64,000 bases of DNA from Lachnospiraceae bacterium (GCA_050309585.1 JBNRML010000073.1:7950-71949), one strand, 5' to 3'; counted from the first letter of the stretch, positions 4,564 to 13,162 are shown. The notes: generated from the sequence alone by a model not told the origin. Program-made: numbers and translations.

Positions 4564-6048
4564 CTACTCTTCTGAGTTATAGCTTTCCAATATTCTCTTA
4601 CAATACTCTGTAAAAGACATATTGCTGTCATCATTTGATGTATAGTCCCCTTCAAGTGAAAATCCAGGGAACTCCTCATCTACATTTGCAAAGTCAATTG
4701 TAGGCTCTGTGACCTCTTCATAATTTTCCTTAGCAGTTTCATAATACGCATTGAAATTCTCATCCTTAAGCCAATCTCCACCTGCAATTTCACTTAATAC
4801 CTTATCATAACCTTCCTTACAATATGCATCATCATTCAAAACAGCTTTCCAGATAAAAGGATTTACCTGCTCCCTGCCAAGTCCCTCTGCATCCTCTGAA
4901 TAAGGTGATACCACTGTCATACCTGTTGCATCCGGATTCCAGCCATAAGTAATTCCAAGACATCTGTCATAGTCATAAGGAATAAAATAAGCCTTTCCCG
5001 TGCTGGCAGAAAAATACACATAATGATTATTGTAATTATTTCTGTAATCATCAGGGTTTCCCACAAAATAACTTACCGCCATGAATTTCTCAAGATATTC
5101 CGTATCAATTACGCTCTCAAAATCTTCTTTTGTAGAGTTATCATCATTAATTACTTTCAGCATATTTTCTAGGTTTTCATGCTTTGATTCTGAGCGGTTT
5201 GTCTTTAAGTCGTAATTGTAAAACATTCCTTTATCCGGATCTTCAACACCGTAAGTAACACTGCTCTCAACATAGTTTGCCGGCTTATATGTCCAGGCTA
5301 CCTTATACAAATCTCCTCCCTGGTCCTCCTTAGGGAAATGTTTCTCAATAAACTCTTTATCTACCGGCTCATAGATATTCACAAGTCCAAAATTTTCACC
5401 ATTCATGCCAAAAGAGCACAAATTAACCCTCTGGGCATAAACCCCGTATTCCCTGAACATATCATATGCATAAAGCTCTCTTATGTGAGTGCCGTCCATA
5501 TTTTTATTCCACTTAACTTCCAACCCCTTGAGTGATGCAAACCTTCTGTCTTTTCTTTCCTGCTTTTCCTCTTCACTGTCCCACTCTTTTGCATCCTCAC
5601 CATAGTAATCCTCGTCATCAAAGGTCTCATTAAAGCTTAATCTGTAATGTGAAAGGTTCATCTCTCCCGTGTCTTCATCATATACAGGAACTCTCGAGGT
5701 ATTTCCTTTTAATCTTATTCCTACCTCTTCTATTTCATACACGGCATCCCCAACTGAAATAATAACTTTATCAGCCATTCTGTAAATAGGTGATTTTGAA
5801 TTTATTCCATCATAATAATCGTAGTCTTCCTGTAATTTATTTAATTCCTCATCAGATATCTGCACCTGAATCGAGACTGGATTTTCCAAATCAAAAAGCT
5901 GCTCATATACCTCATCTATTTTTACAGTCTCTTCACTAACTTCATCAACCGGAATTTTTTCCGGTTTCTTTTCCTCTGTTTTTTCACAGCCGAGCAATGT
6001 GAACGACAACATTCCGACAAGCATCATTATACCAATTTTTCTTTTCAT
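4564..6048 (-). CDS. CotH-kinase family lipoprotein
   Basis: Lipobox LLGC after a hydrophobic leader; GIRLKGNTSR, GDLYK, NPDDYRNNYNNHYVY and FIPYDYDRCLG match CotH motifs. Start set at ATG 6048 (AAGGA RBS). Confidence 0.8.
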   Translation of the reverse strand: MKRKIGIMMLVGMLSFTLLGCEKTEEKKPEKIPVDEVSEETVKIDEVYEQLFDLENPVSIQVQISDEELNKLQEDYDYYDGINSKSPIYRMADKVIISVGDAVYEIEEVGIRLKGNTSRVPVYDEDTGEMNLSHYRLSFNETFDDEDYYGEDAKEWDSEEEKQERKDRRFASLKGLEVKWNKNMDGTHIRELYAYDMFREYGVYAQRVNLCSFGMNGENFGLVNIYEPVDKEFIEKHFPKEDQGGDLYKVAWTYKPANYVESSVTYGVEDPDKGMFYNYDLKTNRSESKHENLENMLKVINDDNSTKEDFESVIDTEYLEKFMAVSYFVGNPDDYRNNYNNHYVYFSASTGKAYFIPYDYDRCLGITYGWNPDATGMTVVSPYSEDAEGLGREQVNPFIWKAVLNDDAYCKEGYDKVLSEIAGGDWLKDENFNAYYETAKENYEEVTEPTIDFANVDEEFPGFSLEGDYTSNDDSNMSFTEYCKRILESYNSEE

Positions 6049-6172
6049 CAGTGCCATCCTTTCCATTTTTACATACTTTTTAAACACATTTCACTACTAC
6101 CTTATTGCGTTATTTTATCATTTATTATAAAATAATTCAACGATAAACAATACGAATTAACGGAGTGAAAAA

Positions 6173-7021
6173 ATGGAAAATAATAATGATAAAAAAGCTT
6201 TATTCCACGAAATGCTGACCTTTTTAATTGAATCTGCAAACATTAACAATGGCACTCTCACAATGGAAGAAATTCAGAATGCCTTAAAGGACGTAATTGA
6301 TGATGATTCCATGTATCAATTAGTTTACGATTATCTTTTAGAAAACAAAATTACAATCAAGGGATATATTTCCACGGAAAAAGAAATAAAAACAGGCAGC
6401 GCTACTCATACGTATTCAAAAACTGCGGAGGATTCTCTTGAAAAAAAATTTATTGATATGTATATGGAAGAAATCTGTAATGTCTCTTCCCCCGCGGAAG
6501 AAAAAGAACTTGAACTCCTTTCGGAGCTCATTGTTGCTCCTGACAACAAAGAAACTGTAAATCAGCTTGTAGAAGGAAATTTAAACAAGGTTTTGACAAT
6601 TGTTGAAAGTTACAAAGGAAAGGGTGTCTCTTTCGGAGATCTCATTCAAGAGGGAAACTTGGGATTAATTGAGGGAATCCTCACTTATACTGACACATTA
6701 TGTAAAGAAATCCCAGTTTGTGATTTTACAGTCTCTGAAAAAGACCTTGAAAGCTTTCACAATCACTTAACCTCAACAATAGTAAAGGCATTGGAAGATG
6801 CCATTCTTGAGCAAAACACCTCTGCAAGAATTTATGCTCACACTGTGGACCGCGCAAACGAGCTTGACCGCGCCTCTATCGAATTGAGCAAAAAACTTGA
6901 CCGCACACCTACTCTTGAGGAATTGGCCAAACACGTTGCACTTCCTGAAGATGAAGTTGAAAGAATTATGAAAATGTCCCTTGATGCACTTACAATTAAC
7001 CAAAATGTGGATGAAGAATAG
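6173..7021 (+). CDS. RpoD-like sigma-70 domain protein (regions 1.1, 1.2, 2, 3; no region 4)
   Basis: LVEGNLNKVLTIVESY (r2.1), DLIQEGNLGLIEG (r2.2), LDRTPTLEELA (r3); protein ends before any region 4 HTH. Confidence 0.8.
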   Translation: MENNNDKKALFHEMLTFLIESANINNGTLTMEEIQNALKDVIDDDSMYQLVYDYLLENKITIKGYISTEKEIKTGSATHTYSKTAEDSLEKKFIDMYMEEICNVSSPAEEKELELLSELIVAPDNKETVNQLVEGNLNKVLTIVESYKGKGVSFGDLIQEGNLGLIEGILTYTDTLCKEIPVCDFTVSEKDLESFHNHLTSTIVKALEDAILEQNTSARIYAHTVDRANELDRASIELSKKLDRTPTLEELAKHVALPEDEVERIMKMSLDALTINQNVDEE

Positions 7022-7069
7022 ATGTTTTCACTGGCATCCTCCGTTATGGAACGTCGGTACTGCTGCTTG

Positions 7070-7270
7070 AGTGAACACTATGTGGTATTTACACATCCAT
7101 TTAGTGTGTGCTAAACTATTTGCCTTATTGGCCATTAAAATCACCTTTCCTTCGTTATAAATTGGCTTGAACAACCTTATTATAACGGAAAGGTGATTTT
7201 TTTTGTATAACAAACACCGCGCACCCGCATAGCGGGTGGTTTATATTTCGCACGCTTCGCGAGCTCAACA
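7070..7270 (-). mobile_element. tnpA: IS200/IS605-family remnant: left end, structured leader and first ~21 codons of tnpA
   Basis: ATG at 7135 gives MANKANSLAHTKWMCKYHIVFT (IS200 TnpA N-terminus), then similarity stops; hairpin acccgcatagcgggt (~7222-7236); long inverted repeat 7139-7199 pairing with the RBS. Confidence 0.88.
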
Positions 7271-7327: not shown

Positions 7328-8176
7328 TCAGTTTTTCTCATTAAGTAACTTTCTCAGTTCTGCAATCTCAGCATCCTTTTCTGCAGTTACCGCTTTGATT
7401 TCAGCATCCTTTTCAGCAAGTTTTGCATCCCTCTTAGCAAGTTCTGCATCCTTCTCTGCAAGTTTTTCTGCAAGTTCAGCGTCTTTTTTTGCAAGTTCAT
7501 CGGCATATATCTCTTTTGCGTATTCTTCGACTATTTCACACATAATCTCACGTCCTTCCTCAGAATCCTTGTAATATTTTATGGTTTTGCTTAATTCTGG
7601 GTACATTTTATCATCAAAGCTTTCTTTTTGCAAAAACAACTTTAATAAATGAGTGTATTTATTTTCCTCATCACTCCTGGCATTTGCAAATACGATGTCT
7701 TCCCCATCATTAATCGGCCTGTACACATCATCTGTCATCTGGCATCTTGATATGTGGGTTACGGCCTGACCATTTCCCAGTGCGTCATATTCCGTTATGT
7801 ACAGAATTTTGATGTTCGGAATGTCACTGAACTTTGTGCTTTTTGGAGTGTGGTTAACGGTAAGTATTGAGGCATGAAATCTTACTCTTTTAATGTCGTC
7901 ATTTGAATTTGATTTTTGCATCTCAATGTTACACAGGGTTCCGTCTCCAAGCTCACATAATGCATCAAGAATCACTTCCCTTTCCAGGCTTGATTCACTT
8001 TTCTGGGGCGTCACCTTTTTCACAATGAGCATCTCGTCATCAAGAAGTGTTCGCAGCATTTCCTGACAGACTAACTTATGGCTTGCTATAACCCTGAAAA
8101 ACGCATCATCAATAATTCGCAGGTTTTTAACTCTGCTGAGGGTTTCCTTGTTAATTTCCTTTTTTCCCTTTTTCAT
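7328..8176 (-). CDS. Rpn-family / PD-(D/E)XK nuclease family 'transposase' with repetitive coiled-coil C-terminus
   Basis: IDDAFFRVI, EVILDALCELGDGTLCNIEMQ, RVRFHAS motifs; C-terminal AEKDAE repeats; own RBS (GAGGAG) and sigmaA-like promoter (TTGCAT-17-TAATAT, 8248-8220). Confidence 0.85.
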   Translation of the reverse strand: MKKGKKEINKETLSRVKNLRIIDDAFFRVIASHKLVCQEMLRTLLDDEMLIVKKVTPQKSESSLEREVILDALCELGDGTLCNIEMQKSNSNDDIKRVRFHASILTVNHTPKSTKFSDIPNIKILYITEYDALGNGQAVTHISRCQMTDDVYRPINDGEDIVFANARSDEENKYTHLLKLFLQKESFDDKMYPELSKTIKYYKDSEEGREIMCEIVEEYAKEIYADELAKKDAELAEKLAEKDAELAKRDAKLAEKDAEIKAVTAEKDAEIAELRKLLNEKN

Positions 8177-10186: not shown

Positions 10187-13162
10187 TTATAAGAAATCCT
10201 GTTCAGTCAATTGTTTATAGTGACCTTTTCCTCTCTTCATTCTGCTAAATATTTTAGAAATTCCAAATCTGTTGGCATTCTCAATGGCATCATCTATTAC
10301 TTCCTGAATATCTTCAATGGACATTGCAGGATTTCTGCCGCTGATGTCATCTAATTTTGCATATAGTGCCAATTCGCCCATTTCGTCTATCTCATACATC
10401 TGTTCAAGGGCATAGTCTTTAGCAATTTTAACCATATCGTTGATTTCCATTTCATGGATATCCAGACGATTATTGAAGAATACTTTTAATTCCGGATTAT
10501 TTACTAACATCCTGTCGATTGCAGCCTTGTCATCCTCCAGGATAATAAGCATTTCCTCCGTATAATTCTTCATTGCGCTCATAAGGTCAACAATCGTATT
10601 AGGCATAAGATTTCCGGCCTGTTCAATAATAAGGTCAGTTCCCAAAATCTTCATCATTGCCGGTGCAACGCCCTTTTTATTGAGTGCAGACGCCTTAACC
10701 TTTGCAACTCTTCTACCGCCTCTGTTTCTTCCCTGGTTTGCCGCTTTGATGAGACTTAATCCCAATGTTGTCTTTCCAACCTTAGCCGAACCGGTAATAA
10801 TGACATTATTTGTTCTGGATGTTCCATCCAGGGTATAGTTGCTGATAAGATTCTCCAATGTCTCGGCAATATCCTCTTCCATACTTCCGGTGCCCACAAA
10901 TTCATTGAAAAGTGATGCGTATTTCTCAGGAATATGTGTAGAATCAGAATCATCGTTAGCGCCAATTTCCACAATAGACGCGACTGTTTTCTTTTCTTCT
11001 TTTTTCTTAATTTTCTTCTTTTCTTCCTGTTCTGAATCCTTTTCTTCTACTTCCTCTGATTTTCCACCAGGAATATCTTCTGTGCTGTCAGTCTCTGAAT
11101 TTTCTTCAGTCTGCTCCTCATCTGATTCAGCTTTATTATCAACATCTTCTTCTATATCTTCAAAATCATCTTCTGTCTTAATGGCGGACAAATCCGCAGC
11201 CTCTTTTTCTGCCTCAATTCTCTCGTATTCAGCCAGAACTTCATCGATTGTCATCTGACCTTCTATCTGTTCGTCATCCACATTGACTTCTTCTGTCTCT
11301 TCCTTCTGCTCCTCAGCCTTTTCCGGATAAACCATTTCTCCTGCCGGGCTGATGGTAATTCCCGCATTCAAAAGTCTGTTAATTTCTGCTCTGTCGATAA
11401 TCTTTGTTGGCTCATTTTCATAATCTGATAAATAGTCATCCTCTTCATAAGGAATGTCATCTGATTCAGCTTTATCATTCATTTTTACATAGTCGTCTTC
11501 TTCTGAAGCTTTGTTAACACTTTCTGTGTTTTCATCCGGAAATGCCTCAATGGCTGAAAAGATTTTTTCAACCTCTGACATAGTATCCTCAGTTTTTTCT
11601 TCTTCGGAATCCTCTTCTGACTCTTCAACTTCTTCAGCTGCTTCCTCAGAAACCTCTTCTGGCTCTTCAACTTCTTCAGCTACTTCCTCGGAAACCTCTT
11701 CTGGCTCTTCAACTTCTTCAGCCACTTCCTCAGAAACCTCTTCTATCTCTTCGATTTCTTCGTCTTCTTCGTCCGAAACTTCTTCCTTTTCAAAAAATCC
11801 AGTGTCACCCTTACGTGAAGGTCTTATCTCATCTTCCTCATCATCGATTCTCATCTCAAATGCATTTTTCGAGCCACTGTTTTCTTCACTGAAGAGACGT
11901 TCCATACTTTGTGCCAAAGCAGCCTGTATATTGGCGGTATTATATAAATTATTGCTATCCTCCAATTTGATATTGATTTCATCAACATCTATTTCAGCGG
12001 TCTTTGTCAGTTCTTCTCCAATATTTGAAACCTTGCCTTCCTTATTTTTATCAAATTCAAATATTTCTATTACAGAATCCCTGCGTTTAAAGTCTGATTT
12101 TCCGGCCTTAGCCACCTTTTCCTTAGCCTGATTTGCACGCATTCTTGCTTCTTCCACAAGCTTTCTTGCCATATCAGCAGCTCTCTGTGCCTCCAGTGCT
12201 GCTTCCTCTGCTGCCCTAAGTGCTGCATTTGCCATCTTTTCTTCTTCAGTTTCAAATTCTTCTTCCTGTGCTGAAGCTTTATCAGCTTCCTCTGCTCTTC
12301 TGGCCATTTCTCTGGCAGCATCACTAATACTGAACCTGCTTACTTCCTCTTCTGTCATTTCATCATCAAGATATTCTTCCTGCATATTTTCATCAAGCTC
12401 TTCATACTCTTCTTCATCAGTTTCTAAAGCTTCATCCTGCCTCTGACTATCTTCCTCATCCTTTGACAAAATAGCCTCTGCCAGCTCTTCCATACTGGAT
12501 TTCTTTTCTTTTTTGACTTCCACTACAGGCTCCGCTATAACGGCGCCGCCATAGATTTTATTATATTCTTCCAGCATTCCTGTAATAAGTCTTTTTAATT
12601 CTTTAGCTTTTTCAACATATTTTCCATTATTAAACCAGAGAATCAACTCATCACACATCTTAATACATTTGTCATCCTGGTCATTTTCATGATACAGTTT
12701 TGCAAGCTCATACTGCCATCTTTCATCCATCTCAACGTCAATATATGCTTCAAGAATTTTAATTAATACTTCTATATCCTCACCCTTTGCCTTGGCGATA
12801 CGATATTTAAGCAAATATTGTGACACGTCTGAAGGTGACATTTCAACAAAATCCTGATAAAACTCATCAGCTTCTACAAAGTTTTTTGTTCTCAATGCCA
12901 GTATGGTGAGCTTGTATGCCAGCTGTCTTCCCAAAGGAGATCTCTCATAGGCAATCAACAGAACTTCCTTGGCTTTTTCATACTGTTTTGTATTTTCATA
13001 TATATCTGCAACCCTGTTAATCATATTATTGTCCTTAACACGATACCAGTCAATTTCATCTGCAATTTTTGCAGCTGCAGCAAATTCTCTCTGACTATAC
13101 AACTTCTTAATCTGATCTGATTTAACATTGTATTCGTACTTATCCAACCTTTTTTCCTCCAT
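10187..13162 (-). CDS. TPR-repeat protein with acidic low-complexity linker and C-terminal AAA+-like P-loop domain
   Basis: N-terminal helical repeats (YEKAKEVLLIAYER...), a long E/D-rich middle, Walker A ITGSAKVGKTT and a degenerate Walker B LIIEQA. Confidence 0.7.
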   Translation of the reverse strand: MEEKRLDKYEYNVKSDQIKKLYSQREFAAAAKIADEIDWYRVKDNNMINRVADIYENTKQYEKAKEVLLIAYERSPLGRQLAYKLTILALRTKNFVEADEFYQDFVEMSPSDVSQYLLKYRIAKAKGEDIEVLIKILEAYIDVEMDERWQYELAKLYHENDQDDKCIKMCDELILWFNNGKYVEKAKELKRLITGMLEEYNKIYGGAVIAEPVVEVKKEKKSSMEELAEAILSKDEEDSQRQDEALETDEEEYEELDENMQEEYLDDEMTEEEVSRFSISDAAREMARRAEEADKASAQEEEFETEEEKMANAALRAAEEAALEAQRAADMARKLVEEARMRANQAKEKVAKAGKSDFKRRDSVIEIFEFDKNKEGKVSNIGEELTKTAEIDVDEINIKLEDSNNLYNTANIQAALAQSMERLFSEENSGSKNAFEMRIDDEEDEIRPSRKGDTGFFEKEEVSDEEDEEIEEIEEVSEEVAEEVEEPEEVSEEVAEEVEEPEEVSEEAAEEVEESEEDSEEEKTEDTMSEVEKIFSAIEAFPDENTESVNKASEEDDYVKMNDKAESDDIPYEEDDYLSDYENEPTKIIDRAEINRLLNAGITISPAGEMVYPEKAEEQKEETEEVNVDDEQIEGQMTIDEVLAEYERIEAEKEAADLSAIKTEDDFEDIEEDVDNKAESDEEQTEENSETDSTEDIPGGKSEEVEEKDSEQEEKKKIKKKEEKKTVASIVEIGANDDSDSTHIPEKYASLFNEFVGTGSMEEDIAETLENLISNYTLDGTSRTNNVIITGSAKVGKTTLGLSLIKAANQGRNRGGRRVAKVKASALNKKGVAPAMMKILGTDLIIEQAGNLMPNTIVDLMSAMKNYTEEMLIILEDDKAAIDRMLVNNPELKVFFNNRLDIHEMEINDMVKIAKDYALEQMYEIDEMGELALYAKLDDISGRNPAMSIEDIQEVIDDAIENANRFGISKIFSRMKRGKGHYKQLTEQDFL
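11622..11744. repeat. 42-bp tandem repeat x~3 inside the TPR gene
   Basis: Unit tcttcaacttcttcagc(t/c)(g/a)cttcctc(a/g)gaaacctcttctggc, encoding EEVSEE(V/A)AEEVEEP-type repeats. Confidence 0.9.

Follow-up and report, generated by a model that had tools for sequence, protein, structure and literature searches.

A sigma-A paralog family of Lachnospiraceae with a conserved core-docking motif and no region 4, a candidate DNA-blind competitor on RNA polymerase

Competition of sigma factors for limited core RNA polymerase (RNAP) is a central and much-modelled idea in bacterial gene regulation, and the known modulators act on the sigma factor (anti-sigmas, Rsd) or on the holoenzyme (6S RNA). Here we describe a gene from Lachnospiraceae bacterium (GCA_050309585.1), found in a 64,000-nucleotide stretch of DNA (JBNRML010000073.1:7950-71949; hereafter the window), that encodes a paralog of the primary sigma factor SigA ending before region 4, which we call pseudo-sigma. 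Firmicute SigA/RpoD is collinear with it from a region 1.1-like domain to region 3.1, carries the identical motif DLIQEGNLGL and shares its predicted sigma2/sigma3 fold. Pseudo-sigma differs in lacking the region 3.2 finger and region 4, in the replacement of the Trp pair, Q437, T440, R441, K414, K418 and R448 (E. coli sigma70 numbering, used for all residue comparisons), and in an acidic sigma2-sigma3 body. Its closest structural analogue is a laboratory sigma fragment spanning regions 1.2-3.1. Engineered and proteolytic fragments of this span bind core, and the Thermus aquaticus sigma-A fragment (PDB 1KU2, regions 1.2-3.1) covers a near-identical stretch and is found among both the sequence and the fold matches (1ku2_A). 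Such fragments are laboratory constructs with a functional -10 surface, whereas pseudo-sigma is natural and under selection, has lost this surface and has retained a region 1.1-like domain.

The closest functional precedent for a sigma-derived protein that is not a sigma factor is PhyR of the alphaproteobacterial general stress response, whose sigma-like domain, repeatedly called a 'sigma factor mimic' in the literature, has lost the role of a sigma and functions through mimicry; it differs from pseudo-sigma in origin, architecture and target. PhyR derives from an extracytoplasmic function (ECF) sigma factor (sigma2 plus sigma4), is joined to a receiver domain, has the anti-sigma NepR as its binding partner and is degenerate in its core-binding determinants, whereas pseudo-sigma is of group 1 origin, has neither receiver domain nor sigma4 and keeps the core-binding motif intact. 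Bacillus subtilis SigO-RsoA and phage T4 gp55/gp33 resemble it in placing sigma functions on proteins that miss a canonical domain. These pairs retain promoter recognition and melting, usually with a dedicated partner encoded next door; in contrast, no such partner lies near the pseudo-sigma loci, and the DNA-contact residues of pseudo-sigma are lost. Rsd, 6S RNA, delta (RpoE) and HelD share with it the outcome proposed below, an altered availability of core to sigma-A, and delta, like region 1.1, shares its strongly acidic character. They show no homology to it, and occupation of the sigma2 site by a sigma-derived protein is not described for them. Full-text literature searches returned no description of the pseudo-sigma family and PhyR as the sole 'sigma mimic' precedent; the source names seen for homologues are 'hypothetical protein' and one generic sigma label, and cluster names are uninformative. 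Judged by its sequences, this family of proteins from gut Lachnospiraceae is large, conserved and, as far as we found, not yet described; it has kept the core-docking part of the main sigma factor and lost the parts that read and open promoters.

An intact SigA paralog with a family-wide end point

The pseudo-sigma gene runs from an ATG through 282 codons to a stop with its reading frame intact, and its product follows Firmicute SigA collinearly from a region 1.1-like domain through region 3.1, stopping at the start of the 3.2 finger. The C-terminal VDEE pairs with SigA IGEE, with which region 3.2 begins, and phmmer aligned residues 94-282 with residues 121-292 of C. difficile SigA. Pfam recognized Sigma70_r3 at residues 228-282 (E 8e-11), just the first 42 of 71 positions of Sigma70_r2 at residues 132-173 (24.4 bits against a cutoff of 24) and a weak r1_1 (E 0.04); it gave sigma domains only, with no r4 domain. 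The best NCBIfam model was the Firmicute RpoD PRK09210, matched over positions 5-272 of 370 with 88.2 bits, failing the RpoD equivalog cutoff of 572, and the protein was far under the cutoff of every remaining NCBIfam sigma model. AlphaFold2 (AF2), run on the family alignment, yielded a confident all-helical model (mean predicted local distance difference test, pLDDT, 81.5) with a disordered linker at residues 68-85, and every top Foldseek match to this model was a sigma A or sigma S chain. The gene is an intact, selected paralog of SigA, and its product is a sigma70-family derivative that fails the defining sigma tests: it has no region 4 and no -10 surface, and it scores far below the curated cutoffs.

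The initial annotation of this DNA, made from the sequence alone, had recognized regions 1.1, 1.2, 2.1-2.2 and 3 and a stop before region 4, and both observations hold. Residue and domain counts below refer to 34 aligned members, and those for the wider family to 176 non-redundant members (at most 70% identity). Regions 1.1 and 1.2 are visible in alignments, but profiles detect them poorly: at E<=0.01, r1_1 matches 8 and r1_2 matches 2 of the 34. The stop lies at the 3.1/3.2 boundary; weak r4 matches in two members probably reflect the 3.1 helix-turn-helix, and a hidden Markov model (HMM) built from sigma4 of 78 true SigAs cross-hit the family with no more than 10 bits, always on the 3.1 helix-turn-helix segment.

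This end point is shared by the whole family. A search of 5.8 billion proteins listed 120 homologues at 36-97% identity, all but one fragment 251-318 aa long and covered over nearly their full length, with a region 4 domain in none of the 120. In a profile search of 1.84 billion cluster representatives, the best 150 were nearly all 250-330 aa and matched up to the C-terminal end, the few long matches among them being ordinary or chimeric SigAs. The FSTYATWW motif is absent in about 240 of 260 retrieved proteins, and the tail after the hallmark KxSxDAL measures at most 16 residues in 141 of 153 scorable members. At 27 genome or metagenome loci of closer relatives, the open reading frame (ORF) ends at the same place, mostly with no insertion sequence (IS) nearby; overall, the end point is common to over 240 homologues and some 75 genome loci, most of the latter without an IS. 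The comparison of homolog lengths proposed with the initial annotation thus finds region 4 absent family-wide. We also considered a hidden, frameshifted or neighbouring region 4 and rejected it: tblastn with full SigA detected no coding sequence for region 3.2/4 in the window, whatever the frame, and tblastn with regions 3.2-4 over 369 kb around 33 family loci (within 5-8 kb) gave only true sigA genes.

The ratio of nonsynonymous to synonymous substitution (dN/dS) is 0.04-0.09 for close ortholog pairs. In a neighbour-joining tree, one split separates all 78 sampled family members from all 79 full-length SigAs, and mean divergence is 1.32 within the family versus 0.21 among SigAs, corresponding to an approximately sixfold faster evolution.

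An IS200/IS605 tnpA 5' remnant, 95% identical to an E. faecium copy, lies next to the gene on the opposite strand and is cut 48 nt beyond the pseudo-sigma stop codon, with no intrinsic terminator found between the two. Metatranscriptome contigs cover the remnant up to 33x, but they come from other copies, since they diverge exactly at 7069 and run on into intact tnpA. The truncation is not IS-caused, because orthologs without an adjacent IS end identically and the remnant lies downstream of the stop. The caveat in the initial annotation, that this copy was merely truncated beside an IS remnant, is therefore set aside: the remnant is real, and the orthologs have no region 4 either.

Residues kept and residues lost

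The segment DLIQEGNLGL (residues 156-165) is identical to the SigA region 2.2 motif. Within it, all 34 members share D403, L404, Q406, E407, G408 and L412, and 33 share N409 and G411. Across the 176 members, region 2.2 is the best-conserved stretch, with D403, L404, Q406, E407, G408, N409 and L412 at 93-99% (D403 0.99, Q406 0.93, E407 0.99, G408 0.95, N409 0.98, L412 0.94). Sigma70 binds the beta-prime coiled coil mainly through Q406, E407 and N409; going by conservation, the strongest constraint on the family falls on the very motif that grips the beta-prime clamp helices in real sigmas. Further positions conserved in the wider set are L384 (0.98), N461 (0.91), E482 (0.98), S501 (0.93) and, in regions 3.0-3.1, R476. 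The 34-member mapping likewise keeps E381, L384 and V387 of region 2.1 together with F427, N461, R476, E482 and K499. In the 1.1-like domain, F11, L15 and Y54 are invariant in the family alignment A1. The Tyr of region 1.2 is conserved in 97% of the 176 members, and the Arg/Lys residues beside it in SigA have become Asp/Asn and Glu.

The segment that melts and reads the -10 element is where the family departs from SigA. Residues 195-207 of the window protein, FHNHLTSTIVKAL, stand opposite SigA FSTYATWWIRQAI, and the replacements are Y430 to H, W433 to S, W434 to T, Q437 to K, T440 to E, R441 to D, R448 to T, K414 to E and K418 to T. Among the 34 members, R441 is Asp in 26, K414 is Glu in 33, K418 is Thr, K392/K393 are acidic, Q437 is mostly Asn, T440, R448 and R436 are replaced, W433/W434 show no conservation, and the loop F419-K426 is lost. 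The loss of the Tyr and Trp-Trp melting residues that the initial annotation reported is thus correct for this protein; across the family it extends to the Trp pair alone, because position 430 stays His, Tyr or Phe (21, 10 and 3 of 34). In the wider set, F427, Y430, W433, W434, Q437, T440, R441, R451, H455 and E458 are each less than 75% conserved; the window subclade keeps R451, H455 and E458 (as Asp), unlike the wider family.

The charge of this part of the protein is reversed. Over the segment equivalent to E. coli 375-512, net charge averages -12.2 in the family (range -20 to -9) versus +6.5 in SigA (+4 to +8), with the reversal concentrated in regions 2.1, 2.3-2.4 and 3.0, and the whole-protein net charge is about -26 to -43 across the family. 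As far as alignments can tell, no -10 recognition or melting residue is conserved in pseudo-sigmas and the surface that would face DNA has turned acidic. The insertion LCKEIPVCDFTVSE sits in the loop to which the -10 'A-11 pocket' residues belong in SigA; of the 34 aligned members, only the window protein and P0002 have it, and it is present also in P0001.

Possible roles on RNA polymerase and the alternatives

Taken together, pseudo-sigma most likely has the polymerase itself as its target and does not start transcription. We propose, with confidence evenly balanced for and against, that it is a DNA-blind protein on the beta-prime clamp helices that competes with sigma-A or holds its place. 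It would dock on the clamp helices of core RNAP as sigma2 does, and its 1.1-like domain and acidic body could fill the DNA channel. Because the DNA contacts, the finger and region 4 are lacking, no open complex would be formed, which would make it a competitor of sigma-A or a placeholder. The flap and the RNA exit channel would be left free. Pseudo-sigma would then either compete with sigma-A or keep free core inactive but readily exchangeable, and core availability would be tuned for sigma-A and alternative sigmas. Engineered sigma fragments without region 4 still bind core. A more specific version, which we hold more tentatively, is that the Lachnospiraceae pseudo-sigma, ancestrally the first gene of the dnaG-sigA cluster, serves as a core-docking, DNA-blind decoy that determines how much core is free and how sigma-A is balanced against alternative sigmas. 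The initial annotation had suggested core binding without initiation, as a sigma competitor or hibernation-type regulator. The pattern expected of such a protein is present (region 2.2 most conserved, basic DNA contacts turned acidic or neutral, a position at the head of the dnaG-sigA cluster); binding, competition and hibernation we infer from it.

Several points weigh against this proposal. It is conservation from which we infer docking on RNAP, and conservation of region 2.2 would be just as well explained by a mimic titrating some protein that binds sigma-A, as anti-sigmas usually grip the same surfaces. Core affinity should be below that of sigma-A because the contacts of region 3.2 and region 4 are missing, and pseudo-sigma would have to be abundant, or in a special state, to compete effectively. 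The interface also differs from that of SigA: 27 of the 34 members have Gly at L402, next to the motif, and 33 have Glu at K414. Occupation of the channel by region 1.1 is not universal, as one subclade lacks this region. Finally, there is weak evidence that the gene is transcribed at a low level: bovine-gut metatranscriptome contigs identical to it cover several of its parts at a depth of 2-3, similar to neighbouring genes of the same organism, and these are low-depth assembled contigs without strand information, for which DNA carry-over is possible.

If the proposal is true, it would reveal a cellular control of sigma competition not described so far, with a protein decoy placed on core rather than on sigma. 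A selected protein that retains only the core-docking half of the housekeeping sigma, often encoded beside sigA, would add a new kind of player and would be a natural experiment on which sigma parts suffice for which steps. The hosts include abundant and culturable butyrate producers of human and animal guts (Anaerostipes hadrus, Bovifimicola), which makes the hypothesis directly testable. Counting pseudo-sigmas as sigmas would inflate the sigma counts of Lachnospiraceae genomes.

Among the alternatives, it is unlikely, yet worth weighing first, that pseudo-sigma is a sigma-A mimic of the PhyR kind, acting away from RNAP. Its SigA-like surface (region 2.2, 1.1 or domain 3) would free or protect sigma-A by titrating a protein that normally binds it, for instance an anti-sigma-A, a sigma inhibitor encoded by a phage, or a regulator. 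The degenerate sigma-like domain of PhyR is a precedent, conservation of 2.2 and 3.1 fits a partner recognizing core-binding surfaces, as is typical of anti-sigmas, and co-location with sigA fits a sigma-A-centred role. However, no candidate partner gene is conserved alongside and the neighbours vary outside the dnaG-sigA context; the core-binding motif is kept almost letter for letter, unlike in PhyR; and to our knowledge there is no cellular anti-sigma-A in Firmicutes.

Rather improbable, in our estimate, is an RNAP accessory factor working outside initiation, a clamp-bound acidic protein on core or elongating RNAP that would mimic nucleic acid as the Bacillus delta subunit or region 1.1 does, aid recycling and suppress non-specific DNA binding, or alternatively contest the clamp site with factors of the NusG family. 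The strongly negative whole protein, the acidic sigma2-sigma3 body, the retained 1.1-like domain, the conserved region 2.2 and the housekeeping operon context all agree with such a factor. It has, however, no sequence relation to delta, Pfam gives sigma domains only, and sequence data do not distinguish this role from that of the DNA-blind competitor.

Less probable still is a genuine initiation factor for a special class of promoters, with -35 recognition or melting supplied in trans. By analogy with SigO-RsoA and T4 gp55/gp33, pseudo-sigma would provide core docking and perhaps extended -10 contacts. The window subclade retains F427, an aromatic residue or His at 430, R451, H455 and E458 (as Asp), alternative sigmas also do without the Trp pair, and sigma70 lacking region 4 can use extended -10 promoters. 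A sigma2-sigma3 body with a net charge near -12, together with the substitutions at K414, K418, R436, R441 and R448, nevertheless speaks against DNA binding, and conservation of R451, H455 and E458 does not extend to the wider family. Around 33 loci, nothing resembling a region 4 partner is encoded nearby, which leaves room for a distant or unlinked one, and the neighbourhoods share no partner gene.

A decaying sigA copy truncated by the neighbouring IS is highly improbable: its one support, the tnpA remnant 48 nt downstream of the stop, stands against the end point shared by homologues and loci mostly lacking an IS, the purifying selection seen in dN/dS, the absence of any region 4 remnant in all frames and a conserved promoter before the gene.

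Promoter, genomic neighbourhoods and minor features

The coordinates of the gene, its parts and its neighbours are collected in Table 1.

Table 1. Features of the pseudo-sigma locus in the window (residues refer to the window protein).
Feature	Position	Strand	Evidence or remark
Conserved sigma-A-type promoter	6105-6133	+	TTGCGT 6105-6110, 17-nt spacer, TAAAAT 6128-6133
Inverted repeat mirroring the promoter	6105-6140	both	arms 6105-6121 and 6124-6140, 82% complementary
Mirror promoter-like site	6140-6112	-	TTGAAT 6140-6135, 17-nt spacer, TAAAAT 6117-6112
Shine-Dalgarno GGAG	6162-6165	+	7 nt before ATG; direct sequence reading
Coding sequence, sigma4-less SigA paralog (pseudo-sigma)	6173-7021	+	full-length homologues 37-97% identity with common end point; dN/dS; AF2/Foldseek
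Region 1.1-like N-terminal domain, residues 4-63	6182-6361	+	aligns to PRK09210 from position 5 and S. aureus SigA from residue 26; pLDDT 83-89
Variable linker, residues 64-88, predicted disordered	6362-6436	+	pLDDT <50 at 68-85; length and sequence vary in family
Region 1.2-like segment, residues 90-125	6440-6547	+	FIDMYMEEI opposite SigA VRMYLKEIG
Regions 2.1-2.2 with core-binding motif GDLIQEGNLGL, residues 126-172	6548-6688	+	motif conservation; pLDDT >90
Lineage-specific 14-residue insertion LCKEIPVCDFTVSE, residues 176-189, two Cys	6698-6739	+	pLDDT 66-75
Degenerate regions 2.3-2.4, residues 195-218	6755-6826	+	F427 kept; DNA-contact residues replaced
Regions 3.0-3.1, residues 219-275, ending in family hallmark KMSLDALT	6827-6997	+	Pfam r3 in 34/34 members
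Short acidic C-terminal tail INQNVDEE replacing the region 3.2 finger	6998-7018	+	alignment to SigA
IS200/IS605 tnpA 5' remnant	7069-7141	-	22 codons at 7070-7135
CotH-kinase family gene, divergent neighbour	4564-6087	-	lipoprotein-type signal (…LLGC)
Rpn / PD-(D/E)XK_2 'putative transposase' family gene	7328-8176	-	between pseudo-sigma and transketolase
991-aa ORF beside the transketolase genes	10187-13162	-	sub-threshold TPR match only

The promoter was identified by cross-species alignment; a consensus promoter scan had missed it because its -35 element TTGCGT scores 3/6. It aligns in nine loci, each from a different species and all with pseudo-sigma alone (arrangement (b), below), whose proteins are 45-58% identical to that of the window; TTG and TAnAAT are invariant and the spacer sequence is likewise conserved. 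The promoter pattern has its sole match in the window here, with 0.01 expected by chance. The promoter lies inside a 36-bp near-palindrome, so that the same -35/17/-10 arrangement occurs on both strands, the minus-strand copy pointing toward the divergent CotH-like gene. This minus-strand promoter-like site was also reported independently, and equivalent inverted repeats occur in L088 and L090. The two transcription start sites would lie about 37 bp apart and point outward to the pseudo-sigma and CotH-like genes, and the near-palindrome suggests either that the divergent promoters exclude each other or that a dimeric regulator has its operator here.

Two pattern scans, each with one genome per species, recovered 23 and 52 family loci, with six assemblies in both lists; the counts are lower bounds because the scan patterns were strict. 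An earlier genome scan with full-length alignment had returned only true SigAs because its pattern was the shared 2.2 motif, and those loci served as comparators. By their titles, the hosts are Lachnospiraceae or genera usually placed there, with the exception of one 'Eubacteriaceae bacterium' (L126) and of titles at order level or vaguer (Clostridiales, Eubacteriales, 'uncultured bacterium'). Cultured hosts are Bovifimicola ammoniilytica, Lachnotalea, Lientehia hominis, Fusibacillus kribbianus and, in Anaerostipes, A. hadrus, A. butyraticus, A. amylophilus, A. faecalis and A. hominis; the Blautia and Lachnospira members were found in metagenome-assembled genomes (MAGs).

Two arrangements predominate among the loci, alongside other placements such as that of L113 described below. 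In arrangement (a), seen at at least 27 loci from Anaerostipes (several cultured species), Blautia and others (L124-L152, L107 and L111; for example L130:4500-9305 of Anaerostipes hadrus), pseudo-sigma is followed on one strand, mostly with short gaps, by an optional dgt-like HD hydrolase gene, dnaG, full-length sigA and trmK. Because pseudo-sigma here heads a same-strand run that includes a full-length sigA, with which it coexists in these genomes, it is an extra paralog. Its frequent position two or three genes upstream of sigA makes it probable that the family arose by sigA duplication, and co-expression with the sigA cluster is possible. The members at L107, L111, L140, L143 and L150 are without region 1.1 and measure 226-231 aa, and L107 and L111 have a second full-length SigA paralog a few kb upstream. 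In arrangement (b), which comprises the window lineage, Bovifimicola and Lachnospira, pseudo-sigma stands alone between a divergent gene for a secreted or membrane protein and convergent transketolase subunit genes. The convergence of the latter makes their adjacency probably a matter of synteny only. The upstream genes vary (a CotH-like lipoprotein, a membrane protein without known function, a DUF1779 protein, shikimate kinase), and no conserved functional partner gene was found in the neighbourhoods, where nothing is conserved beyond the dnaG-sigA or tkt synteny. A defence-system or phage origin was rejected, the matches being generic sigma ones (MzaA, phrog_351) well below membership level.

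In the window, the CotH-like neighbour is predicted to be extracytoplasmic because of its lipoprotein-type signal. A CotH-like gene lies upstream in 11 of the first 28 family loci, and in 10 others the place is taken by an unrelated membrane-anchored protein of about 384 aa with no Pfam match. Downstream, the Rpn / PD-(D/E)XK_2 protein has a C-terminus of AEKDAEL-type repeats; its gene is absent at this position in several relatives, and L001, L003 and L087 have a different, unannotated 311-aa gene. The 991-aa ORF has homologues at the same position in several relatives (cluster C6).

Some loci carry genes of nucleotide metabolism or alarmone synthesis close to pseudo-sigma. A RelA_SpoT-domain small alarmone synthetase gene lies directly downstream in L097, L103, L105 (at about 6381-7082) and L106, a RelA_SpoT-domain alarmone synthetase gene is nearby in L112 (L112:2538-3476), and in L113 (6566-12774) pseudo-sigma sits between purF and purL on the same strand. 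A link of pseudo-sigma to nucleotide or stringent physiology may exist, though these placements are weak evidence for it. The goat-caecum MAG RGIG1934 holds a full-length member (L099:2419-3402) and a second copy, present on a different contig as a C-terminal fragment of 116 aa (L104:5875-6225); this fragment adjoins the same kind of upstream gene.

The C-terminal tails vary among subclades. Many divergent members end in His-rich or His/Cys-rich tails such as HHHHHHEEGCGCGHEHE, EHHHEHHHEHHHDHN and HSCDCGHHH (P0136, P0218, P0200, P0255, P0184, P0188 and P0207; L137:4509-5327), and the composition of these tails suggests metal binding in part of the family. In the subclade of P0125, P0126, P0129, P0157 and P0123, a longer acidic tail ends in (S)DPL(T/E)WR followed by basic residues, a motif that could serve for docking to another partner.

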